Below, piece by piece: positions 22,169 through 45,170 of a stretch of 64,000 bases of DNA. The translations under genes and the position numbers were made by a program. The notes under the pieces are model-generated. The model was not told the origin of the DNA and made no database searches. It saw nothing but the letters and a program-made list of their open reading frames with translations. The stretch lies in the NCBI RefSeq assembly GCF_029227855.1, contig NZ_CP074358.1; one strand, written 5' to 3'. The stretch comes from Escherichia coli. Lineage in GTDB: Bacteria; Pseudomonadota; Gammaproteobacteria; Enterobacterales; Enterobacteriaceae. Position 1 is the stretch's first letter. Every line of letters starts with the position of its first letter.

Positions 22169-22909
22169 ATGAACAATGTCATTCCCCTGCAGAATTCACC
22201 AGAACGCGTTTCCCTGTTACCCATTGCGCCGGGGGTGGATTTTGCAACAGCGCTCTCCCTTAGAAGAATGGCCACTTCCACGGGGGCCACACCGGCCTAC
22301 CTGCTGGCCCCGGAAGTGAGTGCCCTTCTCTTCTATATGCCGGATCAGCGTCACCATATGCTGTTCGCCACCCTCTGGAATACCGGAATGCGTATTGGCG
22401 AAGCCCGGATGCTGACGCCGGAATCATTTGACCTGGATGGAGTAAGACCGTTTGTGCGGATCCTGTCCGAAAAAGTGCGTGCGCGACGCGGACGCCCGCC
22501 AAAAGATGAAGTCCGCCTGGTTCCGCTGACGGATATAAGCTATGTCAGGCAGATGGAAAGCTGGATGATCACCACCCGGCCCCGTCGTCGTGAACCATTA
22601 TGGGCCGTGACCGACGAAACCATGCGCAACTGGCTGAAGCAGGCTGTCAGACGGGCCGAAGCTGACGGAGTACACTTTTCGATTCCGGTCACACCACACA
22701 CCTTCCGGCACAGCTATATCATGCACATGCTCTATCACCGCCAGCCCCGGAAAGTCATCCAGGCACTGGCTGGTCACAGGGATCCACGTTCGATGGAGGT
22801 TTATACCAGAGTGTTTGCACTGGATATGGCTGCCACGCTGGCAGTGCCTTTCACAGGTGACGGCCGGGATGCTGCGGAGATCCTGCGTACACTGCCTCCC
22901 CTGAAGTGA
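22169..22909 (+). CDS. int: Tyrosine site-specific recombinase associated with RepFIB (Int)
   Basis: 246-aa ORF with catalytic-domain motifs (HTFRHSY..HML...LAGH....M..Y) and clear paralogy to ResD at 35001..35792. Confidence 0.8.
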
Positions 22910-22914
22910 CGGCA

Positions 22915-23190
22915 TACGCGCTTCCTTATATAAGCTGTGGTCAGCAGAACAGACATAACATAAGCTGGAGCAGGTAGATAAGCTGTAGTGAGTAAACCAT
23001 GTTTTATGAAGGGAGCAATGCCTCAGCATCAGGTTACGGGGTGACTCACGTAAGGGACAGGCAGATGGCAGCTCAGCCACAGGCAGCACTGCAGGAAACT
23101 GAATATAAACAGCAGTGAGCAGACCACTCACTGCACCTGATAATATAAGCTGTAGTCAGTAAAGGAGCACTCTTCACTGACTACAGTTTA
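22915..23190. repeat. RepFIB iterons (ACAGCTTAT-containing repeats), set downstream of repA
   Basis: Multiple copies of ...TATAAGCTGTRGT... read in the sequence. Confidence 0.7.
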
Positions 23191-23193
23191 TGT

Positions 23194-24171
23194 TCAGCGG
23201 GATTTGAAGAGTTTTTCCAGGTCATCCAGTGTGATGCCCAGTTTTTCAAGCAGGGCAAGTTTCTCCGCCATCTCCGGACTGACTTTTTCCGCAGGTGAAG
23301 GTGGCAACGGATTTTCCTTACTCTCATCATTCGGCGCTTTTAACCGGGGACGCCGGTAGTGAATACAGAAGAATTTTGTCCGCCCCCGCTGGATCTCCGT
23401 GTAATCAAGATATCCAATCTCGCGCAACTGCTCCATTGCCCGTCTGACCGTCTGGTTCTGGGAAAATACAGGAGACTTCAGATTGAGGCGTGCACGCAGC
23501 CGCGCCAGCGATATCGGTGCCGGATCCCGGGGCAGGCTCTCTATAAAGGTGTAGAGTGCCTGGGCGGACTCCCGTCGCTTCAGGGCATTAATCGCCTTAA
23601 GCTGGAGAAGGACTTTTCTGTCAAACTGGTACAGTTCAAACAGGCGGGGATCAGCCTGTAACTGAACAATATCCCGCTCAGTATCGTAGTAGGCTGACTG
23701 TACCAGATGGGTGATGTATTCCCGGGTGTGCTTCTCATCGGTACGGGAAAACGAGATCACGGTACCGGCAATGCGCTTCAGGGAAGGGCTGATGCGCTCA
23801 CGCAGCCTGCGGGATGACTGGCTTGAAGGTATACCACACAGTTTTGCAAACTCAACAAAAGGCAGTTCAACTTTGTCACCAATCACGTTATGGCGGGCAA
23901 AGGAATGAATGATCCCCACCCAGGTCTTGAAATCGTTATCCATATCCAGGCGGGGGCCGGTGATCTCAACCTTATCGAATCCCTCAGCACGGGCCAGGGA
24001 AAGACGAGTCAGCTCTTCCGTGGCATCAGTACGTGACAGTGTATTTTTTTTACTGTTCTTCAGTGATTTAAGGGTCGGTACAAAAACGCCCAGACGCATC
24101 AGCGCCACAGGTTGTACGGTGTTGTTATTGTTTGGTGTCAGTGTCACCAGCTCACCGGACGACTTATCCAC
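23194..24171 (-). CDS. repA: RepFIB replication initiator RepA
   Basis: 325-aa ORF recognised as the RepFIB initiator, flanked by iterons on both sides. Confidence 0.85.
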
Positions 24172-24289
24172 CTCGCCGAACAGTTTTTTGATGTCTGAAT
24201 TTTCGTTTTCCAGAAAGCCTCCTGCCTGTGGACAGTAAAAGAATAAACAGAAAATCGTGTGTCAGAACCCCGTCAACTGACTGAAGAAA

Positions 24290-24450
24290 AACCTGCAGTC
24301 TGTATTTAACAACTGAGTCTGGCGTACTGACCATAGTTTATGTCATTAACTTACTTCAGTATATGCATTACTGAATACAGCTTATCATGAACCTGTTACA
24401 GTTTATCCATAACATGCCACAGCTTATGTGAACGTGGTCCCGGCCCATGA
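24290..24450. repeat. RepFIB iterons, set upstream of repA
   Basis: Repeated ACAGTTTAT / ACAGCTTAT motifs. Confidence 0.65.
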
Positions 24451-24492
24451 GTGACAAGGTTTGTAGCGATATGGGGATCTTTAATGGATCCT

Positions 24493-24954
24493 TTATTGAT
24501 CATTCATGGATCTATTTACTGGATCGGGCCTCTGGATATGTGGATAAATCATTCCGGAAAAACAGCATACACTACCGATTATGAAGGCTTCAGGGCGTAC
24601 CTGCTCACTGTGATTACAGATCCATTGCGCTTCCTCGCCGGTTCGCGGGCTTCGCCCGGTCACCGGTCTGCGGCGAGCACCGTTTTTTCTGAAGTCTGTC
24701 TTTACAGGTAATTTTTGACGGAATCTGCCGTACTTCCTGAGCGTACAGTCATATCCGAAATACACTTCATATGTTTGTTTCAACGCCAGAGGCGCATACA
24801 GACTGGCTCCATGAATATCCTGATGACAGGCACTGCTGCGCAGACACCGGTCATGGATGTAACGGAAATACCAGCTGAACCACAGGTCTTCCAGTCGGGG
24901 ACACTGAGTACAGGGCTGGAGCTTGTGGATACGTATCTCTGGATCTTCAAACAC
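24493..24954 (-). CDS. Hypothetical protein with Cys-rich N-terminus (CxxC...CxxxxxCH)
   Basis: 153-aa ORF, third gene of a same-strand cluster; zinc-ribbon-like cysteine spacing. Confidence 0.4.
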   Translation of the reverse strand: MFEDPEIRIHKLQPCTQCPRLEDLWFSWYFRYIHDRCLRSSACHQDIHGASLYAPLALKQTYEVYFGYDCTLRKYGRFRQKLPVKTDFRKNGARRRPVTGRSPRTGEEAQWICNHSEQVRPEAFIIGSVCCFSGMIYPHIQRPDPVNRSMNDQ

Positions 24955-25010
24955 TTTATGGAAGGAAAGGTGTTAACCAGATCCCTTGCCTGCCTGGTTT
25001 ATATCAAGCC

Positions 25011-25652
25011 CTATAGCGACAGGACGGACAGTGTCACCTTCCAGTCAGTAGCTAAACGATCTAAGGTGTTCCTGGACAAACTGCAGGAGCCAACGTCTGA
25101 AATGATAAATAAGCGAGGGAATATCTGGTGCTGGAAGAGTTGAGATGACTGGCACATTGGTATAAATCTTGCCGTCATTCTGATCAGTTTGTAACATTCT
25201 GTAATGATCACCATTGGCTGGCGATTTTTCTGTTCAGTAATGTAATTAACCTTATCTGATGCGCTGGCCACTATTCCATCAGCTGTACTGATGGCAGGCT
25301 CCCTGTTGAGGTCTGCCGCGAGCTGTCCGCCGGACTCAACGGGCTCTGCCACAATCCGGTTATGATAGCCTGGAAACTGATCAAGGGTCAGGTCGATATA
25401 GTCCCTGGCAGGGGCGGCAATGACGTGGCCGTATCTGCCAGGACCATTATCCCACTGCATACCGACAATACAGGAGTACAGGTTGCTGCCGTCTTCCGTC
25501 AGATAATCAGTCAGCGTCTGGCTGGCCAGCTCGCTGCAACCGGCCGGGAAATCCTTCAGGTGATCATACCCGGCGGTGAGAGAAGCCTCACAGGAAGTCA
25601 GCTCCAGAGCATGTCGGAAGGCCTGCAGGCGGGTCCAGGTGTCCGCATTCAC
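25011..25652 (-). CDS. Hypothetical protein
   Basis: 213-aa ORF with GTG start at 25650-25652 overlapping the stop of the upstream small ORF. Confidence 0.45.
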   Translation of the reverse strand: MNADTWTRLQAFRHALELTSCEASLTAGYDHLKDFPAGCSELASQTLTDYLTEDGSNLYSCIVGMQWDNGPGRYGHVIAAPARDYIDLTLDQFPGYHNRIVAEPVESGGQLAADLNREPAISTADGIVASASDKVNYITEQKNRQPMVIITECYKLIRMTARFIPMCQSSQLFQHQIFPRLFIISDVGSCSLSRNTLDRLATDWKVTLSVLSL

Positions 25653-25789
25653 TTTTTCACCTTCCCGTCATGACGGGCCAGGGACTGAAGTTTACGGACG
25701 TCCTCCCGGGATCCTTTCAGCTCAGCTTTCGTATCCAGCAGCTGCGCCGCCAGCGGTCTTTTTCCCGGGAGCCGACTTTCCTGGCACAT
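25649..25789 (-). CDS. Small hypothetical protein (46 aa), translationally coupled to the 213-aa gene
   Basis: ATG at 25787-25789, stop TGA at 25649-25651 overlapping the next start; below the ORF-track size cut-off. Confidence 0.3.
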   Translation of the reverse strand: MCQESRLPGKRPLAAQLLDTKAELKGSREDVRKLQSLARHDGKVKK

Positions 25790-25802
25790 ATTCTTTTCGC
25801 AG

Positions 25803-25825
25803 TTATCCCCAGAATCTGTGGATAA
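25803..25825. promoter_or_regulatory. Inverted pair of DnaA-box-like sequences (TTATCCCCA ... TGTGGATAA)
   Basis: TGTGGATAA matches the DnaA box consensus; located in the RepFIB region just upstream of the small ORF. Confidence 0.55.
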
Positions 25826-26039
25826 CTGTTGCTCCTCTTTTGAGAGAGAAGGCTTTACTCACCGCCTGAATGCGGCAGATATGTCTGGACGATATATCTG
25901 CATACGCCGGTACTGCTTCGTCAGATTGCACGGCAGGTGAATTGCCGGGCTGGTACCATACCATATTTGCGCCGAACCCGTCCGGGGCGGTGCCGATAAC
26001 AGATGTTAAATGATTGGTCGTTTTTACATCTGTAAAAGC

Positions 26040-26074
26040 AACAGGGCCCCATGATTATATCATGGGGCCCTGTT
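26040..26074. terminator. Long perfect hairpin (ACAGGGCCCCATGA-loop-TCATGGGGCCCTGT)
   Basis: 14-bp perfect inverted repeat with a short AT loop at the transition from the RepFIB block into the AT-rich intergenic region. Confidence 0.5.
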
Positions 26075-26691
26075 ACTCTGATTCTTCGCAATAGATTGCT
26101 CTGAATTAGATGCGCCTTCTCCATATAGACTAACAGTTCTATATTATTTTACCATCTTTAAATGTGTAAGAGTTTTCTGTTTTTTATTGGTGTTTATCTG
26201 TATTTTTTGTTTTAGGAACGTTTTTGTAAGAATTATCTTTTATATTTGAGGTGATATCTTATTGTGGTTGTTGTAATAGTTTAGAGTCGTAATAAATATG
26301 ATTGATCGCCACTTTAAATGAAGTTAATCTACTGGAGATGAAGTAACTTCATTAATGCGTCATAAAAATAAAAATTCCTGTTTTGGGAAATATGAATGTG
26401 TCTGTCCCCTCCTTCGGGAGGGTGTTTTTTATCTGGAAACTGGTTTCTGGTTCTGATTTTTCTTTTTGTATTATAGCGAGTTACGCATATTTACCAATCG
26501 ATGTCTGGCAAACAGAGTATGGCGATGGTGTGATTTGTGTTTATTGGTAAAAAAAACACCCCCGTAGTGGGGGTGTTGAAACTTCAACCTATGTACTCAT
26601 TATCCTTGGATGGATGAGTAGCGTGCGATATTGAATCATATTCAGCAGGAATAATAATATTCGCAAAAAAATGGATGTGCAAGGAAATTTT

Positions 26692-26859
26692 TTATATGCT
26701 TTTGTGTGTGGTGGTTAGGTAATCAAGAAGATAAATGATGAAGTGTGCCAGTTCAGGATCAATGTTTCCATGGGAAAGCCATTTATTAATAATATCAATT
26801 AAGTTCGAAAGCTCAGGGAAGATTTGTTCAATGTTTTCCTCTGTCTCCCGCACAGTCAT
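26692..26859 (-). CDS. Small hypothetical protein (about 55 aa)
   Basis: Internal start MTVRETEEN... within track ORF 26692..26907; lies in an otherwise ORF-poor AT-rich region. Confidence 0.3.
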   Translation of the reverse strand: MTVRETEENIEQIFPELSNLIDIINKWLSHGNIDPELAHFIIYLLDYLTTTHKSI

Positions 26860-27245
26860 ATAGCGACGTCTCCTTGGGGATTGAAAACAAAAACAATAAT
26901 ACAACAAGTATGAAACAGAAGGTAGGTGGCAGGGGCGGAACAGGAAAACGCATGAGGGCGCTTCCTGGGGGAGATGCCTGGTATCTTTAGGGTTCAGTTT
27001 TGAGATCGGGAATTTTTGTACATTAAGTGCATTATTTAATCAATTGAAACGCGTAATGGATTGATTTTATCAGCAACTATCGCGTTTAAGTTGTCGATCA
27101 TATTTGAGTTGTCTCATTAAGGTCGAATCCCCTGAAAGCGGCGTATAACGTAGGAGTTCCCCTCTATAGCAATAGGTAAGGCTGTTCAAAAAAGGCTTAC
27201 CGTACAATAATTCGCTATATCCAGACGGCCCCCCTTGTCATACAA

Positions 27246-27400
27246 GCTCGTAAGCGGCCCTGACGGCCTGTCAATGCGGTACTGCCCTGTCGGGACTGCT
27301 CTACCCACATAAGTTTCTACATAGCTTGAAGCTGGATGGGGAGGTATTACGGCTTTAGCCGTAATACTTTCTTCGTCCTCGCAGCGCTGACAGTTTTCAG
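27246..27400 (+). repeat. Unassigned conserved element, copy B (paralogue of 394-585)
   Basis: Identical 23-nt core at 27246-27268, shared blocks after it, and a perfect 10-bp hairpin GTATTACGGC-TTTA-GCCGTAATAC. Confidence 0.5.
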
Positions 27401-27767
27401 GGATCAAATTTAGGTCCGCCATACACTCCGTAAAGACTCTGTCAGTTCACAGGTATTACCTAGTGAAGACGTATCATAAAATGAAAACTGTAGTTGGGTA
27501 GTTGCTCCCCCTCACGGCATGCAGGGGCTGAGGGGGAAAATTTCCTTATCTTGTTGTTGCTATTTCTGGCTTAGTCAGTTTTGAATTTTGCTTCCTAAGC
27601 AATAATCCCCTCACCGCAACAATCGTTCTTCTACACTAATAAGATCCGAAAAAAGGTAAAACCGGAACTTAATGAAATTACGGAGAATTTGACTGATATC
27701 CACTACCCCATTCTTCCGGCGTGCTATCTATACAGGCTGGTACATCTCATTTAGTCCGGAGGTTGTT

Positions 27768-28058
27768 ATGGGCGTCAAAATCACAGGTTTAGACAAAATG
27801 CAGAAACAGCTAAAAGAGGTTGAGAGAGCAACGGAGGCCTTAAACGGAAGTTATGATGTTCGTTTTGATGCTAACGATCCTAGCAGCATTGAGAACGCAA
27901 TTCAGGAAGCCTACTCCATGGTGGACGAACGCGCTTCTGGTTATGCCACTAATCCTATGGTCAGTCCATTAATCGAACACATGAAAGAAAATCTGCGCCA
28001 ACAGATTCTGGACAGTGCAGAACAACAAAGACAGGAGAGCGGACAGGATGGCGATTGA
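27768..28058 (+). CDS. Small hypothetical protein (96 aa), first gene of a coupled pair
   Basis: GGAGG 6 nt upstream of ATG 27768; stop overlaps the start of the TIR-like gene (ATGGCGATTGA). Confidence 0.6.
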   Translation: MGVKITGLDKMQKQLKEVERATEALNGSYDVRFDANDPSSIENAIQEAYSMVDERASGYATNPMVSPLIEHMKENLRQQILDSAEQQRQESGQDGD

Positions 28059-28947
28059 TATCTTTCAGTCACTTAAAAATTGCGTATTCGACCTTCAGCG
28101 CGCTGACGTTCAGAACTATCAGCAACCTCTTAAGCAATTGGCCCGGCTCTTGAACTCAGAGAATCTGCAGTCAGTTAATGCACATCTGACCCGCAATGTT
28201 GAACTTGATACCTTTCTGGCCAGGAGTGAAGATACTGAATCCAGCATGGCTGGTTCCGCTGTTCTACAGTGGCCTGATGAGCCCGCTGATATTTTGGGCC
28301 TGAAGTTGCTGCTGATCGAGAAAATGGCAGACGATAACAATTTTTCCTTTAATTTCTGTCATACATTTTTCTATGATCGAAACATTATTGAATCCATTCG
28401 AAAATTCACGTCGTCATTAGTTGCCCCGTTCGTGCGCGATTACCAGTTGTATGTGGAAAACCAACACGATCCTGAGCCTGCAGTGTTTCGGCCGGTTTCC
28501 CGAAAAATTTTTATTGTTCATGGCCATGATAATGATGCCCTTCAGTCTGTTGCCCGTTTTATATCCCGGATAGGTCTTGAGGAAATCATTCTTTCAGAAC
28601 GTCCTGACGGCTCCAGGACGATTATCGAGAAATTTGAAGCAGAGTCAGGGGATGTCAGTTTTGCCATCGTGCTGATGACGCCCGACGATAGCGGCAGTGC
28701 TCTGGCATCTGAAAGCACACGTCTCCGCGCACGCCAGAATGTCCTGTATGAGCTCGGATATTTCGCCGGGAAGCTTGGACGCGGGAAAGTACTTGTACTC
28801 AGGAAGGGAGATATCGAAATCCCTTCAGATCTTGCCGGGGTTCTCTATACCGAGCTTGATGAGCATGGTGGATGGAAACGCAAACTGCTGAGTGAGCTTG
28901 CGTATGCCGGTGTTCCTTTTGACAAGGATAAAGCATTAAGCGCCTGA
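28048..28947 (+). CDS. Protein with C-terminal TIR-like domain (CAP12/PycTIR-type, predicted nucleotide-binding TIR-like)
   Basis: C-terminal motifs FIVHGHDNDA ... LYELGYFAGKLG...VLVL recalled as hallmarks of the TIR-like family; N-terminal 150 aa unassigned. Confidence 0.65.
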   Translation: MAIDIFQSLKNCVFDLQRADVQNYQQPLKQLARLLNSENLQSVNAHLTRNVELDTFLARSEDTESSMAGSAVLQWPDEPADILGLKLLLIEKMADDNNFSFNFCHTFFYDRNIIESIRKFTSSLVAPFVRDYQLYVENQHDPEPAVFRPVSRKIFIVHGHDNDALQSVARFISRIGLEEIILSERPDGSRTIIEKFEAESGDVSFAIVLMTPDDSGSALASESTRLRARQNVLYELGYFAGKLGRGKVLVLRKGDIEIPSDLAGVLYTELDEHGGWKRKLLSELAYAGVPFDKDKALSA

Positions 28948-28968
28948 TCTCCTTCATTTAGTAAGAAA

Positions 28969-28987
28969 AAGGCCGCTAAGCGGCCTT
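28969..28987. terminator. Bidirectional rho-independent terminator between convergent operons
   Basis: Hairpin AAGGCCGC-TAA-GCGGCCTT flanked by an A-run upstream and a T-run downstream. Confidence 0.7.
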
Positions 28988-28996
28988 AATTTTTGG

Positions 28997-31222
28997 TCAG
29001 TCGTCATTTTCCAGCGCTGTTTTGAGCGCTTCCTGCTCCGGAGTCAGCTCGTTGCCGGACAGCATAACCTTCAACTTCTCTTCGACTGCTGGCCAGTCAT
29101 CAAAGAACGGACTGACCTGGTCACGCGCAATCCGGCGATATGCCCCTCGGTGGGAGCTGAAGACACTGGTCTGTAATCGTATCAACAGGTTAACAAGGCC
29201 TTCATCAGTGGTAGTAACTTCTCTGACCCATTGCTTCACGGTTTCACCTGAACTCATGTCTCTCCAGGCGTAGAGATACCCGAGAAGAGACTTGCGCAGG
29301 AGAAGCTGTTGCTGAAGTTCTGGTTGATTCATACGTTCCGCAAACCTGTCACGCAACCGTTCCGTAATATCGCGACTGAAAAGAGCATCTGAAGGCGAAG
29401 GTACTGCATTCTGAGCAAGTCCATGTTCCCAGATAAGATCCCGCATAAAATCGGCTATCCAGAACGGCGAAGCACCCGTAACGATCAGTTTTTCCATAAG
29501 CGTGATCGTTCTGGTCTCATCAATATCCTGCATATGCTTCAGCAGATGCCGTACAACCTCATTAATGGCCATTTCACGCAGGGAAAACCATGGGTTACGG
29601 ATACTGAAGCGAGTGCTCACCTCATCGGTGTGCTCGAAGAAAAAATGAACCAGTCCTGCGCACTCTTCGAAATTACGTTCTCTTATCAGGCCTGGAGTCA
29701 GTCTGCTCAGTATATGTTCAAACCAGGTTCCGGACAGACTGCCCACACTGTTGATTTTTGAGAGCAGCAATTCAGAAAGCTGCTGCTGTTTTTCCGATAC
29801 GCCAGCCTGTTCAAAAAGCTGTCTGAAGAATTCAGGTGGCAGAACATTCTGTGGTGAGGAGAAGGCAAAATAATATCGCCAGTGCGTCAGGCTGCTGAGT
29901 CGTTTACCGGTCGTCTGGATATGACGAAAATCCTCACTGACGGGCTCAAAAAGATTCAGATATTCATCATTATGTCCACTGATACCTGGGATCCAGTCTG
30001 CAAGTGTCAGAAACGAGTCTGCATTTGATGCCCTGAACGTCTTCATACATCTGATAAGCCCCTCCCGGAAGTCTGCTTTCTCTCCGTCAGAAAGCATACC
30101 CTGACCGGTTTCAATCACGGACCGTTCTGTCAGGTAATGCTCTGTCCAGTCATACAGAGCCGGGTTTGTCACCCGTATAAGCTGAAGCAGGCACAAATCA
30201 GGGAAATAAACAAAATCCCGCATCCCCGGATAAAGAAAAATCAGGGAATTAATGGCCTGATGGATTTCCCGTGGCGTCGAAAGTGCGGCACCATAGGTAT
30301 CAGTCACCGCGATGAGATCCCTTACCATTCCAGAGTCTGGCGGTTGATTATTAATTTGCTGATATAGAGCCTCAGCCCGCTGGCGAAATTCATTACGTAA
30401 ATCAAAGGCTTCAGGTCGGGGTAATTTAAAACTAAGCTGAATGATTTTCTGGAGATAACGGCTGCCATCTTCGATATTCAGCGCATGTTCAACGGCATGA
30501 GTGATAATCTGCCTGTCATAACAGAGAATATGGGTAAAGCGGGGCAGATCGGCTACTGCACGCACAAGCCTGAACACTTCCGCCACCTGGGATGGCTCCA
30601 GTCGGTCCAGATCATCCATGACAACAATGAACTTCAGATCCAGACTCACCAGTTGTCCTGCAATTTCAGCCCGAAGCTTTGTCGTGGTTTTCTGATCAAC
30701 AGCCAGACGGCTGTCTGAAAATACCTTTATTCCGCCTGCTATCCAGTTAATAATGCTGGAAAACTGTCCGATATATTGAACCAGTGGAAGGACGCGCGAT
30801 GAAGTATCCTGAGCATACTCAATCACTTTTTGAGCTTCCGGTGACAACAGATATTTACGCCAGAGCTTTTTGAAGCCCTTCGGGGGATAGCGTATTTCCA
30901 TTTCCTGCTGGATAACCGTGGCAACCGGAAGAAAGAGCGCTTCAACCGGACTGCCGCCACTCAGCCAGGGAGAAATATGCAGCACATGTGTGTGAGCATC
31001 TTTTTTCAGGGCAAGGTTTCTCAGGATCAGATTAAGGAGGCTTGTTTTACCCGATCCCCATGCACCTTCTATTCCGACAACATTTGAAGCCTCCAGAGGA
31101 AGAGTAAGGATGGAACGGGATATATTTTCTGCGATATTACCGAAACCGTATCGATCCTCAGGTACATCTTCAACTGCCGCATCAAGCCCTTTCTGGTTCC
31201 ACAGCTGCCTCAGTATCTTCAT
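28997..31222 (-). CDS. KAP-family P-loop NTPase
   Basis: 741-aa ORF with Walker A GIEGAWGSGKTSLLN and Walker B-like IVVMDDLDR, large helical C-terminal region. Confidence 0.7.
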   Translation of the reverse strand: MKILRQLWNQKGLDAAVEDVPEDRYGFGNIAENISRSILTLPLEASNVVGIEGAWGSGKTSLLNLILRNLALKKDAHTHVLHISPWLSGGSPVEALFLPVATVIQQEMEIRYPPKGFKKLWRKYLLSPEAQKVIEYAQDTSSRVLPLVQYIGQFSSIINWIAGGIKVFSDSRLAVDQKTTTKLRAEIAGQLVSLDLKFIVVMDDLDRLEPSQVAEVFRLVRAVADLPRFTHILCYDRQIITHAVEHALNIEDGSRYLQKIIQLSFKLPRPEAFDLRNEFRQRAEALYQQINNQPPDSGMVRDLIAVTDTYGAALSTPREIHQAINSLIFLYPGMRDFVYFPDLCLLQLIRVTNPALYDWTEHYLTERSVIETGQGMLSDGEKADFREGLIRCMKTFRASNADSFLTLADWIPGISGHNDEYLNLFEPVSEDFRHIQTTGKRLSSLTHWRYYFAFSSPQNVLPPEFFRQLFEQAGVSEKQQQLSELLLSKINSVGSLSGTWFEHILSRLTPGLIRERNFEECAGLVHFFFEHTDEVSTRFSIRNPWFSLREMAINEVVRHLLKHMQDIDETRTITLMEKLIVTGASPFWIADFMRDLIWEHGLAQNAVPSPSDALFSRDITERLRDRFAERMNQPELQQQLLLRKSLLGYLYAWRDMSSGETVKQWVREVTTTDEGLVNLLIRLQTSVFSSHRGAYRRIARDQVSPFFDDWPAVEEKLKVMLSGNELTPEQEALKTALENDD

Positions 31223-31223
31223 A

Positions 31224-32315
31224 TTACAGATCTCCGTACAGGCAGCGCAGCCCGGTCAGGGCCTCCGCCAGCGGGCCTTCTTGACACCGCGTGGCGAGCT
31301 CCCGGACCAGCGTCTCAAAGGCCTCCGCCGGCATAAAAATCCGCAGGCCGTCTATCCCGAAGAAGCCCTCCGGCGTGACGTTTCCGGGCGGGGAGAACAT
31401 CACTCGCTCCCCCTGGTGACCGTGCGTCAGGGCTTCCGGATGCCGGGCATACAGCGTGAACAGGCCCAGCAGTTCGGATAACGCTTCCCAGCCGTACGGC
31501 ACCACGAAGTCCTGGCCGGTGATCAGCAGGTGCAGACGGGGTGTGGTGTACCAGGCCCCCGGGCGTTCTCCGGGGTGCTGGCCGTCAACGCGGATCTCCA
31601 GGCGCAGCGTGCCGGCCTCAATGGTTTCCGTGACGGCAGAAATAACCGGGCGCAGCTCCTGTGCCAGCGTTCTTGCCTGTTCTGTGTTCCAGTCCAGGCC
31701 GCGCAGCATCAACGGGAAAACAGCTTTCAGCCGCGGCAGGGTGAAGATTTCTGCCAGCACCGCGTCCGGCACCTCCGCCAGGCCAAAACAGTCGCTCTCG
31801 AGCGGACGCAGGAGGTGTTCGGCATACATCTGATCCACCACGGGGCGCAGCGCTGCCCGGAAGGCTTCAAACTCTTCCGTCCAGTTTTTCCCGGCCAGGC
31901 GGAAAATCCCCTTCAGGTAGTGACCGTCCACAGGGCGATCGTGCTCCACCTGCCAGGCCAGCAGGTTGCCAGTGATGTCCAGCAGCGTGTCCAGGGCCGG
32001 GAGTGTGGCCAGCCTATTATGCCCGCGCAGGAAGGCCTCCCTGACGTGAACCAGGACAAAGCGCAGTTCGTCGCGGGAGAGCGCTGACGTGCCGAAGGTC
32101 TGGCCCAGAATGATATGCCGGTACAGCTGCCGGACCGTGGCCTCCGGATCGGCAATGAGCTGAAAATACCCGTCACCGGGCGCGACCGTTTTCAGGCCGT
32201 CATCGAGGAAGCGTTCGGCTAGGGCGTTGACCGAAGTATTTTCCCGACCGGCACGCGTTTTCAGCGCCTCGATAAGTTTTTTGTGAAAACGCAGGTTAAG
32301 CTGGCTTAGCATCAT
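31224..32315 (-). CDS. Protein with N-terminal ribbon-helix-helix domain and uncharacterised C-terminal domain
   Basis: N-terminus LSQLNLRFHKKLIEALKTRAGRENTSVNALAERFL fits the RHH pattern; stop is 1 nt from the KAP NTPase start; visibly GC-richer than neighbours. Confidence 0.6.
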   Translation of the reverse strand: MMLSQLNLRFHKKLIEALKTRAGRENTSVNALAERFLDDGLKTVAPGDGYFQLIADPEATVRQLYRHIILGQTFGTSALSRDELRFVLVHVREAFLRGHNRLATLPALDTLLDITGNLLAWQVEHDRPVDGHYLKGIFRLAGKNWTEEFEAFRAALRPVVDQMYAEHLLRPLESDCFGLAEVPDAVLAEIFTLPRLKAVFPLMLRGLDWNTEQARTLAQELRPVISAVTETIEAGTLRLEIRVDGQHPGERPGAWYTTPRLHLLITGQDFVVPYGWEALSELLGLFTLYARHPEALTHGHQGERVMFSPPGNVTPEGFFGIDGLRIFMPAEAFETLVRELATRCQEGPLAEALTGLRCLYGDL

Positions 32316-32342
32316 CGATCCTTTAATGTTTGTTTTGTTCTT

Positions 32343-32359
32343 AATGCTAACCTAGCATT
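32343..32359. promoter_or_regulatory. Candidate operator: perfect inverted repeat AATGCTA-ACC-TAGCATT upstream of the RHH gene
   Basis: 7-bp arms with 3-bp spacer, about 30 nt upstream of the start at 32315. Confidence 0.45.
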
Positions 32360-32997
32360 TTATTATTAGCTATTAATCAGTTTTTTAGTTTTTGAAAATT
32401 GTGATGCTTCTAAAATTACTAAAATTGAGGATTTTAATGCTACAACAATGCCTGCCTCTTCTTATTTCTCCGGAGATCCGAAAACCCCAAGTTCAGGATC
32501 TTCCTCTCCCCCCACACAACGCCACCTCCTGTAAGCACAATATGTGGTGCCGGATTCAGCTACTGATGACACTATATGTTGTGTCATCTCCCTGACCTGT
32601 GATGCGTCGCGCAGGGGCGGAAAACAGCGATATGATGATTTCCTCAGCGTGGTACACTTCCGGAAACCCGTCAATAACAGAAAAATCGGATCTGCCTGAA
32701 ATGGGCATCCGGTAATTTAATGGCGTGGTTATATGCCTGCTTATTATCTGACAGGTGATGATTTATTTAGGGGAAAATAATTCATGCTGACAGAGTGTTG
32801 TGCTGCCATGCGTAATAACTCTGAGCGACTGTTGCTTCCGGTATCAGTTGAGTGAGGATTTTCAGACCACCACGTTTTACTGACCAGTAAAAATTTTTTT
32901 TGCCCGCAAGGCTGACAAGTGACTTCTTTTAGAATTTCGGCATCCACAACCAATGGCAGGAAGCCCGATGCAAAAATTTTTAAGGAGAGCTCTTTTA

Positions 32998-33237
32998 ATG
33001 AAAATTGCTCAGCAATTACTGGAAGCCGTTCTGCAATTTATGAATGCATCTGCAATGACTCAGGTGCTGACGTTGCTATTCCTGGCTCTGATAATACAGG
33101 TACTGAAAACATTAATTACGGCGTGGATAGTAAGAAAACCATCTTCAGGAGAGATGGTTTTAGACCGGAAACCTGACTCTGCCGGGCGTAAGGATCACTG
33201 CAGGCAGCTGTCTCAACAAAGGAAAAAACATGGCTGA
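32998..33237 (+). CDS. Small hydrophobic protein (about 79 aa)
   Basis: RBS AAGGAGAG then ATG 32998; hydrophobic stretch MTQVLTLLFLALIIQVL; stop overlaps the start of the next ORF (ATGGCTGA). Confidence 0.4.
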   Translation: MKIAQQLLEAVLQFMNASAMTQVLTLLFLALIIQVLKTLITAWIVRKPSSGEMVLDRKPDSAGRKDHCRQLSQQRKKHG

Positions 33238-33519
33238 CTGGTTTATTGCAACTGAAGGTGTGAAGGTGGTGAAAGATAGTGCCAGCCTGTGGCCGCAGAT
33301 CATCACGGCGGTTTTGTCTGCCGGTACTGCATTTGGTGGTGTGTGGTACGGGCAGTGGCGGATAACACAGCGAGAGGAGGAAGCTGCAACAGCGAAGCTG
33401 GTCAGCGAACGTCTCTTTATTGCCACGGAGCTGGTTTTTCTGCTGGAGAGGTTTGCGCAGCGTTGTGCTCCAGCAGCAACAGCAACTGTGGAGCACGATC
33501 AGGATGGCAGAGGAGAAGC
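33230..33519 (+). pseudogene. Hypothetical gene truncated at its 3' end by IS3 insertion
   Basis: ORF reads from 33230 straight into the IS3 terminal repeat at 33520; final residues of the track ORF are IS-encoded. Confidence 0.5.
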
Positions 33520-33584
33520 TGATCTTACCCAGCAATAGTGGACACGCGGCTAAGTGAGTAAACTCTCAGTCAGAGGTGACTCAC

Positions 33585-33884
33585 ATGACAAAAACAGTAT
33601 CAACCAGTAAAAAACCCCGTAAACAGCATTCGCCTGAATTTCGCAGTGAAGCCCTGAAGCTTGCTGAACGCATCGGTGTTACTGCCGCAGCCCGTGAACT
33701 CAGCCTGTATGAATCACAACTCTACAACTGGCGCAGTAAACAGCAAAATCAGCAGACGTCTTCTGAACGTGAACTGGAGATGTCTACCGAGATTGCACGT
33801 CTCAAACGCCAGCTGGCAGAACGGGATGAAGAGCTGGCTATCCTCCAAAAGGCCGCGACATACTTCGCGAAGCGCCTGAAATGA
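33585..33884 (+). CDS. insE: IS3 transposase OrfA (InsE)
   Basis: Same protein as copy 1. Confidence 0.9.
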
Positions 33885-34747
33885 AGTATGTCTTTATTGA
33901 AAAACATCAGGCTGAGTTCAGCATCAAAGCAATGTGCCGCGTGCTCCGGGTGGCCCGCAGCGGCTGGTATACGTGGTGTCAGCGGCGGACAAGGATAAGC
34001 ACGCGTCAGCAGTTCCGCCAACACTGCGACAGCGTTGTCCTCGCGGCTTTTACCCGGTCAAAACAGCGTTACGGTGCCCCACGCCTGACGGATGAACTGC
34101 GTGCTCAGGGTTACCCCTTTAACGTAAAAACCGTGGCGGCAAGCCTGCGCCGTCAGGGACTGAGGGCAAAGGCCTCCCGGAAGTTCAGCCCGGTCAGCTA
34201 CCGCGCACACGGCCTGCCTGTGTCAGAAAATCTGTTGGAGCAGGATTTTTACGCCAGTGGCCCGAACCAGAAGTGGGCAGGAGACATCACGTACTTACGT
34301 ACAGATGAAGGCTGGCTGTATCTGGCAGTGGTCATTGACCTGTGGTCACGTGCCGTTATTGGCTGGTCAATGTCGCCACGCATGACGGCGCAACTGGCCT
34401 GCGATGCCCTGCAGATGGCGCTGTGGCGGCGTAAGAGGCCCCGGAACGTTATCGTTCACACGGACCGTGGAGGCCAGTACTGTTCAGCAGATTATCAGGC
34501 GCAACTGAAGCGGCATAATCTGCGTGGAAGTATGAGCGCAAAAGGTTGCTGCTACGATAATGCCTGCGTGGAAAGCTTCTTTCATTCGCTGAAAGTGGAA
34601 TGTATCCATGGAGAACACTTTATCAGCCGGGAAATAATGCGGGCAACGGTGTTTAATTATATCGAATGTGATTACAATCGGTGGCGGCGGCACAGTTGGT
34701 GTGGCGGCCTCAGTCCGGAACAATTTGAAAACAAGAACCTCGCTTAG
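33881..34747 (+). CDS. insF: IS3 transposase OrfB (InsF)
   Basis: 288 aa; differs from copy 1 at two residues. Confidence 0.9.
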
Positions 34748-35000
34748 GCCTGTGTCCATATTACGTGGGTAGGATCAGTTTGCATAAAAACGCAGCTATG
34801 TTGGGAGTAAAAGCACTGCGGTTATCACGAGAACTGAGAATGTTATGTGGCCTCCCTCTGCACGGCCTTTCCGATACACTATCGCCAACGAGGTTGGTAT
34901 TGTTGAAAGCCAGAGGTAAAACACTCCAAAAGGAGTACGAAATGGTAAAGAAGTCTAAAAAGACCGAGCAAGAGATTGAGGATTTCATAAAGGGGACATC

Positions 35001-35792
35001 ATGAGTGGCCCACAATTGCTTTCCCTGCCTGGTTCTTTTTTAACGCCTCCGGCAACATTACCTGTTGCCATTGATTACCCGGCTGCGCTGGCACTACGTC
35101 AGATGGCACTTGTGCAGGGCGAATTACCAAAATATCTGTTGGCGCCGGAGATCAGCGCCCTGCTCCGCTATGTACCGGATCTGCACCGCAAAATGTTGCT
35201 GGCCACCCTGTGGAACACGGGCGCACGTATAAACGAAGCGCTGGCGCTGACGCGGGGAGATTTTTCACTGGCGCCGCCATATCCGTTCGTACAGCTGGCC
35301 ACGCTCAAACAACGGACTGAAAAAGCGACCAGAACGGCAGGCCGTGTCCCTGCTGGCAGTCAGGTGCATCGCCTGGTTCCCCTGTCCGATACACAATACG
35401 TCAGCCAACTGCAGATGATGGTGGCCACGCTGAAAATCCCACTGGAGCGCAGAAACAAACGAACCGGAAGAATGGAGAAGGCGCGCATCTGGGAAATCAC
35501 CGACCGCACAGTTCGCACCTGGCTGAATGAAGCTGTAGAGGCCGCTGCGGCCGACGGCGTGACGTTCTCTGTTCCGGTTACCCCACATACTTTCCGCCAT
35601 TCCTACGCGATGCATATGCTGTATGCTGGTATTCCGCTGAAGGTGCTGCAGAGCCTGATGGGGCACAAGTCGATTAGTTCGACAGATGTGTACACGAAGG
35701 TGTTTGCGCTGGATGTGGCTGCACGGCACCGGGTGCAGTTTTCGATGCCTGAGTCCGATGCTGTCACAATGCTGAAAAACAGACACGCATAA
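35001..35792 (+). CDS. resD: Plasmid multimer-resolution tyrosine recombinase ResD
   Basis: 263-aa ORF recognised as F-plasmid ResD-like; catalytic motifs HTFRHSYAMHML ... LMGH. Confidence 0.85.
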   Translation: MSGPQLLSLPGSFLTPPATLPVAIDYPAALALRQMALVQGELPKYLLAPEISALLRYVPDLHRKMLLATLWNTGARINEALALTRGDFSLAPPYPFVQLATLKQRTEKATRTAGRVPAGSQVHRLVPLSDTQYVSQLQMMVATLKIPLERRNKRTGRMEKARIWEITDRTVRTWLNEAVEAAAADGVTFSVPVTPHTFRHSYAMHMLYAGIPLKVLQSLMGHKSISSTDVYTKVFALDVAARHRVQFSMPESDAVTMLKNRHA

Positions 35793-35799
35793 GTCACAA

Positions 35800-35930
35800 A
35801 TCATAATTATGAATTGTGATTTATTCTATAAAAGAAGAGACCACTGCAATATGTGATCTCTTGTATGCAAGGGTGCTTAAACAGTGTGAATTCACAAGTG
35901 TGATTTCATAAGTAATAACTTCTTGATTAT
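35800..35930. repeat. Partition-site-like direct repeats (TGTGATTT motifs) downstream of the ParA-type operon
   Basis: Three TGTGATTT-containing repeats; GTGATTTCATA recurs at about 36981. Confidence 0.5.
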
Positions 35931-36205
35931 TACGTTAGTGTTTTTAAGTATTGCTCAAGGGCTACTCTGACGATGGCACTTACATTTTTTGGATCTTTAC
36001 CATTGCGTTTATTCCTCAATGCCAGATCTTCTATTGTGACAAGCATGCTTTCACCAAGAGAGATTGTCGTCCGACATTGTTTTTCTGGTTCGGGTTTTTC
36101 CGGCGCGCCGTATGGTTTATCCGCAAGGCGCTGAGCCAGAGCCTCTGCTTGTTCTACCGTAACTGCAGCTCTGTTTAATGCTTGCTGGCTGGGTTTCTTC
36201 ACCAT
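35930..36205 (-). CDS. Small centromere-binding partition protein (ParG-like)
   Basis: 91-aa ORF immediately downstream of and overlapping the ParA-type ATPase gene. Confidence 0.7.
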   Translation of the reverse strand: MVKKPSQQALNRAAVTVEQAEALAQRLADKPYGAPEKPEPEKQCRTTISLGESMLVTIEDLALRNKRNGKDPKNVSAIVRVALEQYLKTLT

Positions 36206-36843
36206 GGGCCAAATACCTCATTCATTAAATGTTCAATTTCTGCTCTGGCTGCTGTATTGTTCGTTTCTACTACACCGGTGCCGTTGCTCATGCAATCGCG
36301 ATAGACTTTTCTGAAACAAATAACTGAATCCAGGACTTGAATTGTTGGGAATTCTTCAAGATATTCAAGGAATTCTTTTCTCTCATTTCCCCTCAAAACC
36401 GGATTGGTTGTTGCCATACTTTGTAAACAATAAACCTTAAGTTCCGGGTTAAGGTTACGCATTGCGTCTATCTGTTGTTCTAGTTCTGTAAGAGTATCCA
36501 GATCTGGTTGAGAACACTGTAGTGGCGCAATTATTTGATGTGCGACAACTCCACTCGTTATGAATTCCTTTGAGTTTCTTCCTGCGACATCCACTATTAC
36601 ATCATCGAACTTTTCATTCAGAGCCTGTAGTGTTTGTGTCAGGTTATCAAATTTCTCAACAAGGGTTATTGCTGGTAACAGTCCTGCAGCTTCTCGTTCT
36701 GCATGATGTTTTGCGGCTGTTCGTTGTAGATCTCCGTTTAACAGGCAGACTTCCCTTCCTTTATTTGCGAGAGCAATAGCCAGGTTTGATGCAATGGTAG
36801 TTTTCCCTGAACCACCTTTGTTCCCACCAACTACAGTAATCAT
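36199..36843 (-). CDS. parA: Type Ib partition ATPase (small ParA/ParF-like)
   Basis: Start MITVVGGNKGGSGKTT (deviant Walker A) at 36841-36843; 214 aa. Confidence 0.85.
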   Translation of the reverse strand: MITVVGGNKGGSGKTTIASNLAIALANKGREVCLLNGDLQRTAAKHHAEREAAGLLPAITLVEKFDNLTQTLQALNEKFDDVIVDVAGRNSKEFITSGVVAHQIIAPLQCSQPDLDTLTELEQQIDAMRNLNPELKVYCLQSMATTNPVLRGNERKEFLEYLEEFPTIQVLDSVICFRKVYRDCMSNGTGVVETNNTAARAEIEHLMNEVFGPW

Positions 36844-36849
36844 TGCAAC

Positions 36850-37070
36850 CTCATAAATGTGATGTGTGAAGTATGATGATATTTTGACACGGTAACCTGA
36901 TGTGTCAATATGCATTCATATTTATGAAGTATGAAATATGAAGTGTGTCATATGATGTAATAAATATTACTTGTGTTTTGTGATTTCATAACTATGATAG
37001 TTCTCAAATTGAGTATTACCTTGCAACCAGAAACAGTTATTTACTCAGATTGAGTATTTAAGGGGCTATA
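36850..37070. repeat. Shared centromere/promoter region with iterated short repeats between divergent partition operons
   Basis: Repeated TGATGTG, ATGAAGT and ATTGAGTATT motifs between the ParA-type start and the ParM start. Confidence 0.6.
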
Positions 37071-37071
37071 G

Positions 37072-38043
37072 ATGAACGTATACTGCGATGATGGTTCAAC
37101 AACAATCAAGTTGGCATGGAATGACAATGGGAAAATCTGTAAGTCGTTGTCGCAAAACTCATTTCGTCATGGATGGAAGGTTGACGGGTTAGGGATTCGC
37201 CAGACATTTAACTATGAACTGGATGGTAAAAAATACACGTATGATGAAGTTAGCAACCAATCTATTCTTACGACTCATATTGAGTATCAATATACGGATG
37301 TTAACCTGTTAGCTGTGCATCACGCTTTACTGAATAGTGGATTAGCGCCTCAGCCTGTATCATTGACTGTGACTTTACCTATCAGTGAGTTCTACACGAA
37401 AGAGTGTCAAAAAAATGAACTCAACATTCAGCGTAAAATTGAGAATTTAATGAGGCCGATTCGTCTTAATAAAGGCGATGTTTTCACCATTGAACACGTT
37501 GATGTGATGCCTGAATCATTGCCAGCTGTGTTTTCTCGTCTGGTCATGGATAAAGTTGGTCAGTTCGAAAAATCGCTGGTAGTTGATATTGGCGGCACTA
37601 CGCTTGATGTTGGTGTTATCGTTGGTCAATTTGACTCTGTAAGTGCCATTCATGGTAATTCTGGCATTGGTGTGTCTTCAGTTACGAAAGCTGCAATGAG
37701 TGCATTGCGCATGGCATCCAGTGATACCAGTTTCCTCGTTGCAGATGAATTGATTAAACGTCGTAATGATCCGGATTTTGTTCGGCAGGTTATAAATGAC
37801 GAAACAAAAACTGATCTGGTCCTTAATACCATTGAGGGGGCTATTGCCAGTCTGGGGGAGCAAGTAGTCAATGAGCTCGGTGATTTTCATCATGTGAATC
37901 GTGTTTATGTTGTCGGTGGTGGGGCCCCGTTGATCTATGGTTCGATAAAAACGGCATGGCACCATCTTGGGCAAAAAGTAGTGATGATGGAGTCGCCACA
38001 GACAGCACTGGTTGAAGCTATCGCGGCTTTCAAAGAGGAGTAA
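37072..38043 (+). CDS. parM: Actin-like partition ATPase ParM/StbA
   Basis: 323-aa ORF similar to R100 StbA as recalled (DDGSTTIKLAW..., DIGGTTLDV, VVGGGA). Confidence 0.85.
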   Translation: MNVYCDDGSTTIKLAWNDNGKICKSLSQNSFRHGWKVDGLGIRQTFNYELDGKKYTYDEVSNQSILTTHIEYQYTDVNLLAVHHALLNSGLAPQPVSLTVTLPISEFYTKECQKNELNIQRKIENLMRPIRLNKGDVFTIEHVDVMPESLPAVFSRLVMDKVGQFEKSLVVDIGGTTLDVGVIVGQFDSVSAIHGNSGIGVSSVTKAAMSALRMASSDTSFLVADELIKRRNDPDFVRQVINDETKTDLVLNTIEGAIASLGEQVVNELGDFHHVNRVYVVGGGAPLIYGSIKTAWHHLGQKVVMMESPQTALVEAIAAFKEE

Positions 38044-38047
38044 TATT

Positions 38048-38440
38048 GTGGACGATGAACGGAAAAGGAAAAAATTCACACTTTATCTGCATCCGGAAAA
38101 AGCTGCAGACTTTCAAACTTTGGAAGCGATAGAGTCCGTTCCGCGTTCTGAGCGTGGTGAGCTGTTCCGGAATGCATTTATTTCTGGAATGGCGTTACAC
38201 CAACTTGATCCTCGCCTGCCTGTATTGCTGACTGCCATTTTGAGCGAGGAGTTTTCAGCAGATCAGGTTGTAACCTTACTCAGTCAGACGACTGGATGGA
38301 AGCCTTCTCAGGCCGATATCAGAGCTGTGTTGACTGAACTCGGTGCTTTGCAATCTGCTGAAAAAATGCCTCCTTCTGCTACTGATTCGGTGCAGGAGGC
38401 AATGAATGATGTGCGCCTTAAAATGCAAAAATTATTCTGA
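38048..38440 (+). CDS. parR: Partition adaptor ParR/StbB
   Basis: Probable GTG start at 38048; small protein immediately after parM with StbB-like N-terminus. Confidence 0.7.
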   Translation: MDDERKRKKFTLYLHPEKAADFQTLEAIESVPRSERGELFRNAFISGMALHQLDPRLPVLLTAILSEEFSADQVVTLLSQTTGWKPSQADIRAVLTELGALQSAEKMPPSATDSVQEAMNDVRLKMQKLF

Positions 38441-38444
38441 TATA

Positions 38445-43453: not shown

Positions 43454-43503
43454 TGTTATCGCCGCCTGCCCTGCGGGCGGCGATACAGGGAGAACGCTTA
43501 ATC

Positions 43504-45124: not shown

Positions 45125-45170
45125 TTAACGGACGGGGCGGCAATGCCGCCCCTGTAAAGGAGACGAGAAC

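Follow-up and report, generated by a model that had tools for sequence, protein, structure and literature searches.

Overall organization of the locus

We analyzed the interval from position 26100 to 33519, together with the DNA adjoining it, in a 64,000-nucleotide stretch of an Escherichia coli contig (NZ_CP074358.1), the whole of which is called the window below. We are fairly confident that the interval consists of three parts lying side by side: backbone adjacent to the RepFIB replicon, a cargo block, and an operon that ends in the gene of a ResD-type tyrosine recombinase. Its sequence is mostly that of the classic F plasmid (NC_002483.1), joined at the recombination site rfsF to a ResD operon of the type present in plasmid pTW11681_81 and damaged by the insertion sequence IS3. 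Positions 21926 to 32666 align with positions 35375 to 46114 of F at 99.65% DNA identity, and the genes follow the order found in F: repB, a 213-amino-acid (aa) open reading frame (ORF), the small RNA gene UptR, yuaX, the gene of a TIR-like protein, pifA, pifC, and rfsF. In classic F, a 55-aa ORF lies between the 213-aa ORF and yuaX, and pifC is followed by ccdA, ccdB, an integrase gene (resD), and repE. The window and F encode identical YuaX, TIR-like, and PifC proteins, whereas PifA differs by a single substitution (E530D; 740 of 741 residues identical). A total of 69 plasmids carry nearly the whole interval, and the plasmid records retrieved by megablast name its genes as hypothetical protein, "nucleotide-binding protein," P-loop NTPase or "phage T7 exclusion protein," and pifC.

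The cargo block contains two pairs of genes that face each other. On the plus strand, yuaX (27768 to 28058), encoding a 96-aa helical protein (WP_000538310.1 in F), shares 11 nucleotides (nt) with the gene of the 299-aa TIR-like protein (28048 to 28947). On the minus strand, pifC (31224 to 32312), encoding the pif operon repressor and fertility inhibitor, lies directly upstream of pifA (28997 to 31222), encoding a 741-aa KAP-family P-loop NTPase, with a gap of 1 nt. The pairs meet at a bidirectional terminator-like hairpin (28969 to 28987) between the TIR-like gene and pifA; its 8-bp stem contains 6 GC pairs, and T-runs are present on either strand. A sequence-only reading of this stretch had reported two convergent coupled pairs and a sharp change of composition between neighboring genes. 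The ORF listing and its coordinates bear out the former, and the latter is evident in pifC (GC content, 0.63; GC at third codon positions [GC3], 0.76) against pifA (0.48 and 0.49). PifA and PifC, rfsF and ResD, IS3, and UptR are established elements; the interest of the locus is in its site-bounded cargo architecture and the unstudied TIR pair rather than in the truncation by IS3.

Two rfsF-type sites at the borders of the cargo block

The published rfsF site is 28 bp long, with 10-bp inverted repeats around an 8-bp spacer (AGATCCGNAA-N8-TTNCGGATCT); it has been searched for as AGATCCGNAANNNNNNNNTTNCGGATCT and was experimentally identified as a replicon-fusion and resolution site of F (PMC8299605). 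It is the published target of the ResD recombinase. The rfsF of F itself, at nt 45922, fits the published pattern perfectly, and the same nucleotide is the start of the F region matched by the RepFIA replicon of pEC958 (PMC4398462). In the window, two such 28-bp units lie in direct orientation on the plus strand and flank approximately 4.8 kb of DNA. The distal site L, AGATCCGAAA-aaaggtaa-AACCGGAACT (27642 to 27669), forms the left edge of the cargo, and the proximal rfsF site R, AGATCCGAAA-accccaag-TTCAGGATCT (32474 to 32501), has a hybrid core. Both units have the arms AGATCCG and CGGATCT with 14 bp between them. Site R departs from the published pattern at one position (core position 22), while site L has a perfect left arm and three departures, all in its partly degenerate right arm. 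The exact 11-mer AGATCCGAAAA occurs at 27642 and 32474 only within the 64 kb, where by our own calculation approximately 0.03 occurrences would be expected by chance; shuffled sequence gave 0.4 matches per window when up to two arm mismatches were allowed. A weak rfsF-like 28-mer at 55462 to 55489 (ATATCCG-N14-CGGATGT, one mismatch per arm) is probably a chance match. By sequence, the distal and proximal sites fall into two classes that have unlike spacers, and those of L and R differ at 6 of 8 positions.

Homology to other plasmids breaks at these sites. The window matches F without a mismatch from 32174 to 32493 and diverges by approximately 15 to 20% from 32494 onward, and it matches pTW11681_81 (locus L002) without a mismatch from 32489 to 32733, with no homology left of 32467. 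The F match on the left and the pTW11681_81 match on the right make site R a hybrid with a crossover in core positions 16 to 20. Plasmid pE16EC1059-1 (L003) keeps the AT-rich backbone, lacks the 4.8 kb, and has a single site that combines the left portion of site L with the right portion of an F-type site R; its homology to the window ends at core position 17 of site L. Homology to the Salmonella IncHI2 plasmid pJT01 and the Klebsiella IncFIB/HI1B plasmid pXH1507-1, both of which carry the cargo, begins exactly at 27642, the first base of site L. In at least five independent comparisons (the window with F and L002, the window with L003, the window with L076 and L077, L008 with L006, and L006 with L007), homology breaks inside the 28-bp core, the outer flanks are unrelated, and the identity shared at the broken cores is at most 20 bp. 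Because the breaks fall inside the cores, we consider the joints to be site specific. The borders of the block are formed by rfsF-type sites and not by the edges of gene pairs.

Cargo between equivalent sites in other plasmids

At least 80% of the cargo block is held by 870 plasmids, including Klebsiella versions that are approximately 87% identical, and both convergent gene pairs are inherited jointly across them. The region is a mosaic, in keeping with the earlier description of a patchwork of horizontally acquired modules, but the two convergent pairs travel as one block rather than separately. That description had also called for comparison with RepFIB plasmids lacking the island, and in related RepFIB plasmids the cargo is indeed absent or replaced: pE16EC1059-1 is empty, and pDETEC81 (L004) keeps the RepFIB spacer and carries Gabija and vapBC in place of the F cargo. 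The spacer is contained in 308 plasmids.

In the Klebsiella plasmid pXH1507-1 (L076), the cargo copy belongs to a three-site array, which suggests that site-bounded modules can be stacked. The order there is site (2595), a DUF3800 module, site (4886), yuaX, the TIR gene, pifA, and a truncated pifC. A module consisting of a cyclase of the cyclic-oligonucleotide-based antiphage signaling system (CBASS) and a four-transmembrane protein is shared, at 90.3% identity, by a Citrobacter plasmid and a Pectobacterium element over exactly the stretch between the sites, and the DNA outside it is unrelated; a sister Pectobacterium contig lacks the module at the same position and has one site. Cargo found between site pairs includes Gabija with vapBC, CBASS, PDC-S06, and pifC with a PDC-S64-like protein and an ATPase. 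When one genome per species was scanned, approximately 30 Enterobacterales genomes proved to contain the exact site; the usual order in them is cargo, rfsF, ccdAB or a gene of the 229-aa family described below, and a resD-like gene; the part of this order from rfsF to the integrase gene recurs in approximately 20 Enterobacterales species.

The yuaX and TIR-like gene pair

The TIR-like protein consists of a helical N-terminal domain (residues 1 to 138) and a TIR domain of the CAP12/Pycsar type (PF10137; Pfam E value, 8.6e-37) with the catalytic-glutamate motif NVxxExG, in which the glutamate is invariant. Its best structural matches are Cap12 TIR-STING and TIR-SAVED, its NCBIfam Cap12 score is 42, below the cut-off of 450, and it matches the PADLOC candidate profile PDC-S35 with an E value of 2.4e-65. 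The family is large, with 5,366 matches among 8,000 candidates scored, and nearly all members are 298 to 301 aa long; the start at 28048 was chosen because of this homologue length. PDC-S35 is listed as a single-gene family, yet a partner was present at every one of six distant homologue loci (Pseudomonas, Agrobacterium, Vibrio, Methylobacterium, Roseateles, and Halomonas), where a small gene of 94 to 127 aa lies directly upstream of the TIR-like gene and overlaps it while the wider neighborhoods differ. These upstream genes carry the precomputed Pfam label PF27363 (YuaX), and the 96-aa YuaX of the window aligns with their products. Neither the cargo block nor the six homologous loci contain a CD-NTase or cyclase gene. 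Because the small overlapping gene is kept at all six loci, the neighborhood differs, and genes for a cyclase or CD-NTase are missing, we read yuaX and the TIR-like gene as a conserved, self-contained two-gene module. If unregulated, free TIR NADases of this clade are toxic (bioRxiv 10.64898/2026.04.30.722052). We predict by analogy that the pair would act as an NAD-consuming abortive-infection module in which the small partner restrains or triggers the TIR enzyme, and we infer an anti-phage role for it. A literature search that covered few subscription journals found no description of PDC-S35, of YuaX, or of the two as an obligatory pair, which is weak evidence.

The pifA-pifC pair

PifA, called phage T7 exclusion protein in related records, matches the PADLOC PifA profile with an E value of 2.9e-290. 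It is the F abortive-infection protein against T7 and is triggered by gp1.2 and gp10 (PMC8594841), and PifC, the pif repressor, additionally inhibits IncP and IncW conjugation (PMC5696584). In many genera, pifC adjoins rfsF, often as the first cargo gene, and PifA is only approximately 40% identical or is replaced. DNA homology to two other loci (L037 and L041) stops at the pifC stop codon. The constancy of pifC beside rfsF, together with a divergent or replaced PifA, suggests a second swap point at this stop codon, which would account for the jump in GC content between pifC and pifA. At these two loci (L037, 5665 to 9576; L041, 1258 to 5167), the place of pifA after pifC (83 to 85% identical) is taken by a PDC-S64-like gene of 292 aa, which faces a convergent gene of a 521-aa ATPase (HEC-04-like). 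PifC may be a general regulator that heads variable effector genes.

The ResD operon and its disruption by IS3

To the right of site R, all on the plus strand, lies a gene for a small protein of 89 aa with one transmembrane helix (32968 to 33237), the start of which follows the annotation of related records; a Shine-Dalgarno sequence, AAGGAG, accompanies another possible ATG at 32998. The small gene overlaps by 8 nt (33230 to 33237; shared ATGGCTGA) a gene that encodes a 229-aa protein in its intact form. The 5' fragment of the latter (33230 to 33519) comprises the first 96 complete codons, or the first 290 nt of the intact allele found at positions 6631 to 7320 of pTW11681_81. It is followed by a 1,258-bp IS3 (33520 to 34777) that starts with TGATCTTACC, has TGATC...GATCA ends, and encodes orfA and orfB. 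The last 227 nt of the gene survive in frame beyond the element (34778 to 35004), and their stop codon overlaps the ATG of the ResD-type recombinase gene (35001 to 35792) as ATGA. The sequence-only reading of a third coupled pair running into IS3 at 33520 is exact in both the shared ATGGCTGA and the start of IS3, and the search it proposed for intact versions of the truncated gene recovered homologues of 229 aa, so that the ORF at 33230 has no natural end before 33520. A module inactivated by IS3 was likewise correctly seen, although the gene is not merely truncated, and the island does not end at IS3, as the 3' end of the disrupted gene and a coupled ResD-type gene lie beyond it.

A simple insertion of IS3 is ruled out by the absence of a 3-bp target duplication (the flanks are AGC and GTT) and by the 173 bp of the 229-aa gene that are missing at the right side of the element. 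A second copy of IS3, 99.4% identical, lies in the inverted orientation at 4872 to 6132 on the minus strand. An inversion between the two copies is also ruled out, since no other part of the window contains the 173 bp and the flanks cannot be paired. Neither copy has a matching 3-bp duplication; together they bracket approximately 27 kb that include a fimbrial operon, RepFIB, and the pif block. This exact IS3 junction was found in none of 5,426 complete E. coli genomes, and no plasmid match spans it.

In plasmids without IS3, the 89-aa gene, the 229-aa gene, and a gene of a 263-aa site-specific integrase overlap successively. The recombinase encoded at 35001 to 35792 has matches to the Xer and integron-integrase families and is 90% identical to F ResD over 244 aa; by analogy it would be the presumed enzyme for the rfsF sites. 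The position held here by the small transmembrane gene and the 229-aa gene is occupied by ccdA and ccdB in F-type plasmids; neither protein encoded here has an NCBIfam or Pfam match, and no homology to CcdA or CcdB was seen. Other species have a wide variety of unrelated small genes in this slot, between rfsF and the recombinase gene. At seven loci (L001, L006, L008, L033, L036, L048, and L052), recurring small-gene families without annotated function (beginning MGRSIPVK..., MCDLC...NYFHT..., and MGKPTFRSF...) are reshuffled there into different combinations.

We detected 272 homologues of the 229-aa protein in Enterobacterales, with a very conserved N terminus preceding a transmembrane helix. 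The predicted model (predicted local distance difference test [pLDDT], 82.5) is a transmembrane helix with a four-helix bundle, and its fold matches generic bundles only. The match to the PADLOC candidate PDC-S67 is weak (E value, 1.3e-15 over residues 33 to 210) and indicates a distant relative only. A conserved upstream partner was considered and rejected, as the small genes in front of family members are unrelated. In Pectobacterium, Citrobacter, and Pantoea, a tyrosine recombinase gene lies downstream of the gene, immediately so in two of the three and after an intervening 115-aa gene in Pectobacterium. Our best guess, made with low confidence, is that the protein may be a membrane-acting toxin or an abortive-infection effector. 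In pDETEC81 (12684 to 13190), the gene has been independently truncated at its 5' end by IS26, and several shorter variants exist in the databases (P0009 and P0018 to P0020), hinting at recurrent inactivation. In the literature search described above, no description was found of PDC-S67 or of this family as an alternative to ccdAB.

The RepFIB-adjacent spacer and the left part of the window

The spacer left of site L (26100 to 27641) has a GC content of 0.395, compared with 0.489 for the whole window, and reaches 0.31 to 0.40 over 26000 to 27000. Its longest ORFs are 55 to 78 aa. Four terminator-like hairpins were found, at 26407 (+), 26577 (-), 26965 (+), and 27566 (+), and in an 8-kb scan the enrichment of such sites was not significant (12 sites against 7.2 ± 2.7 expected). 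The AT-rich, ORF-poor, hairpin-bearing stretch of 1.6 kb that had been reported is thus present, with the reservations that only approximately 1 kb of it is strongly AT-rich and that hairpins are not in excess. The strongest hairpin is the intrinsic terminator (26577 to 26555; 9-bp stem with 6 GC pairs, followed by a T-run) of a gene for the small RNA UptR (Rfam RF02568; 26555 to 26646 on the minus strand), for which the full covariance model (1 to 92) gives 124.8 bits, above the gathering score of 100, with an E value of 1.9e-21. The stretch is not part of the island, as had been supposed; it is kept in the plasmids without the F cargo, pE16EC1059-1 and pDETEC81, and carries UptR. Positions 26100 to 27641 are RepFIB-adjacent F backbone.

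Just left of the interval, a perfect 41-nt palindrome (26037 to 26077; aacagggccccatgattatatcatggggccctgtt) is probably a bidirectional terminator that follows the 213-aa ORF (25011 to 25652, minus strand) beside RepFIB. Matches of Rfam mir-5595 to it were rejected as spurious because they occur on both strands of a perfect palindrome. The 213-aa ORF shares 56% identity across its first 113 aa with a Pluralibacter gene (L036, 4583 to 5368) that lies within a two-site interval, beside a 377-aa ORF resembling the annotated DUF3800 gene of pXH1507-1. The DNA to the left of site L could itself represent an old cassette. Another tyrosine recombinase gene of the ResD family (22169 to 22909, plus strand) lies, as it does in F, on the far side of RepFIB and encodes a protein 49% identical to that of 35001 to 35792; it could also act on rfsF-like sites. 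Further left, a chaperone-usher fimbrial operon (6348 to 13112; 835-aa usher) and an AraC-family regulator gene (15649 to 16449) indicate that the window comes from a virulence plasmid of the enteroaggregative or enterotoxigenic E. coli (EAEC/ETEC) type. Overall, the record that comes closest is that of pAA from strain K41V1 (coverage, 81%).

A proposed site-bounded exchange model and its alternatives

In our reading, positions 27642 to 32501 constitute a cargo block held between two directly oriented 28-bp rfsF-type sites and carrying two facing modules, pifC-pifA and yuaX with the TIR-like gene. To its right stands a ResD operon in which ccdAB is replaced and the 229-aa gene is knocked out by IS3 with an adjacent 173-bp deletion. 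The pieces would have been joined by ResD-type site-specific recombination, presumably catalyzed by ResD, with the crossover that fused F-type DNA to pTW11681_81-type DNA lying inside the rfsF core of the window; in other plasmids, the same site pair brackets different cargo or none. Of this, the sequence identities, site positions, exact breakpoints, and domain content are shown; catalysis by ResD, the anti-phage role of yuaX with the TIR-like gene, and the action of the 229-aa protein are inferred. An attractive idea is that like sites on separate replicons would exchange. We tentatively suggest, as a reading with a reasonable chance that still falls short of probable, that enterobacterial plasmids and integrative elements share a cassette-exchange system made up of rfsF-type sites and ResD-family recombinases. 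In it, discrete multigene modules, in many cases anti-phage ones (PifA, YuaX with TIR, CBASS, Gabija, and PDC-S06), would lie between a distal and a proximal class of 28-bp site; unlike spacers would lock modules in place, like sites would exchange with like between co-resident replicons, and F would carry, beside pifA, a second defense system composed of YuaX and a TIR NADase.

Several observations weigh against this proposal. The unlike spacers of L and R should make direct recombination between the two poor, and the right arm of site L, on which ResD is presumed to act, departs from the consensus. The permanence of pifC beside rfsF means that it may be a long-standing neighbor of the site and not freely mobile cargo. 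PDC-S35 and PDC-S67 are untested PADLOC candidate families, and the 229-aa protein has no match in Pfam, NCBIfam, or PDB sequences and no informative homologue or fold. Two of the eight two-site intervals contain no PADLOC match. Of ten proteins beside further rfsF-type sites, one has a weak match, and the cargo there includes an RHS core domain, an esterase/AraC pair, genes for sugar utilization, and a transposase. A uniformly anti-phage cargo is not supported, as the proteins beside these further sites are mostly without PADLOC matches.

The explanation closest to the sequence-only reading is that two-gene modules were acquired independently, with borders at the edges of gene pairs and an end at a remnant gene cut by IS3. 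Neighboring genes do differ in composition, the junction between pifC and its effector is a real swap point at which the homology of L037 and L041 stops, and IS3 does interrupt the last gene. Breakpoint mapping largely refutes this explanation, however, in that the block edges are 28-bp sites, both convergent pairs are co-inherited even in the divergent Klebsiella versions, the AT-rich part is backbone, and the disrupted operon continues beyond IS3; we regard it as unlikely. It is slightly harder still to credit that the 28-bp sites serve multimer resolution only and that the cargo differs through homologous recombination or insertion sequence activity. In many plasmids, the variable parts are flanked by conserved pifC, resD, and RepFIB spacer sequences, some copies show clear remodeling by IS26 and IS3, and the spacers of L and R are dissimilar, all of which this explanation would accommodate. 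It sits poorly with the breaks inside the core between unrelated flanks in the comparisons above, where the shared identity of at most 20 bp is too short for efficient RecA recombination. Moreover, rfsF is experimentally a fusion and resolution site (PMC8299605). That the entire block belongs to the RepFIB backbone as a fixed component, the condition under which the sequence-only reading would itself have been refuted, can be set aside as extremely improbable. The 69 plasmids with nearly the whole interval, and F itself, would be expected under it, but pE16EC1059-1 and pDETEC81 keep the spacer with no cargo or with Gabija and vapBC, the cargo occurs on IncHI2 and IncFIB/HI1B replicons, and the counts of plasmids with spacer and with cargo differ (308 and 870), so that it is already refuted.

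A different kind of alternative concerns what the gene pairs do. The pair of yuaX and the TIR-like gene and the pair of the small gene and the 229-aa gene could be toxin-antitoxin systems for plasmid addiction, or plasmid-competition factors, which we consider possible but on the doubtful side. Both pairs overlap with the small gene first, as in ccdA-ccdB, and the second occupies the ccdAB position; the toxicity of unregulated TIR NADases and the destruction of the 229-aa gene in two independent insertion sequence events (IS3 in the window and IS26 in pDETEC81) would also fit. Against this, yuaX and the TIR-like gene also occur in chromosomes and prophage-like regions of the six distant genera, the TIR-like protein strongly matches a PADLOC candidate derived from defense islands (PDC-S35), and the 229-aa family lacks a conserved small gene upstream.

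Comparison with known systems

Relative to classic F, the window has the same order from repB to rfsF and, apart from the substitution in PifA, the same proteins, but it is no longer F-like beyond rfsF core position ~20. There, ccdAB is swapped for the small transmembrane gene and the IS3-disrupted 229-aa gene, ResD is 90% identical, and a stb/parM region follows where F has RepFIA. The replacement pair has the position and orientation of ccdA-ccdB between rfsF and the recombinase gene, with the small gene first and translational coupling into the recombinase gene. It has no sequence similarity to CcdA or CcdB, and its larger protein is membrane anchored, so that the equivalence is positional only.

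The TIR-like protein shares the PF10137 TIR domain, the NVxxExG motif, and structural matches with the CBASS effector Cap12 (TIR-STING) and the Pycsar effector PycTIR. In contrast to these, the locus has no adjacent CD-NTase or cyclase gene, and the protein has no STING, SAVED, or transmembrane sensor; it has a helical N-terminal domain of approximately 140 aa and an obligatory overlapping yuaX partner. F is the reference conjugative plasmid, yet this gene pair beside pifA has no described function. Its family numbers more than 5,000 proteins and is seemingly always accompanied by the same small partner.

With the rfsF/ResD system of F, the window has in common the 28-bp core of 10-bp inverted repeats and 8-bp spacer and the adjacent ResD-type tyrosine recombinase gene. 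Foreign DNA likewise begins at the site in the fusions reported for IncI1, IncR, and Klebsiella virulence plasmids (PMC8004404, PMC9412624, PMC8299605); in IncI1, the sets of genes termed "Delta" and "Col," with pifA and ibfA among their members, switch at rfsF (PMC8004404), and in IncR plasmids, rfsF is the suspected entry point of foreign DNA (PMC9412624). What differs here is a second site, distal and directly oriented, that encloses a discrete block of cargo, and the presence of equivalent site pairs, with one three-site array, around other cargo in several genera. The literature search, with its few subscription journals, found no description of defense cassettes linked to rfsF or of a closed two-site cassette layout with exact mobility of modules across genera. 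If rfsF and ResD do move whole defense or competition modules, this would add a site-specific route of spread beside integrons, pdif modules, and transposons, and it would explain why identical, sharp-edged blocks occur in unrelated plasmids. The two 28-bp sites are also simple annotation landmarks that delimit accessory cargo on IncF, IncI, IncHI, and related plasmids.

Integron cassettes and the pdif modules of Acinetobacter are discrete modules bounded by short sites for tyrosine recombinases, found in unrelated backbones and in arrays. The rfsF blocks would resemble them in being discrete modules that lie between short sites, are present in unrelated backbones, and can form arrays. They differ in having rfsF-type 10-8-10 cores rather than attC hairpins or XerC/D 11-6-11 sites, and in being multigene modules with their own promoters and terminators, for which, by analogy, the enzyme would be ResD.

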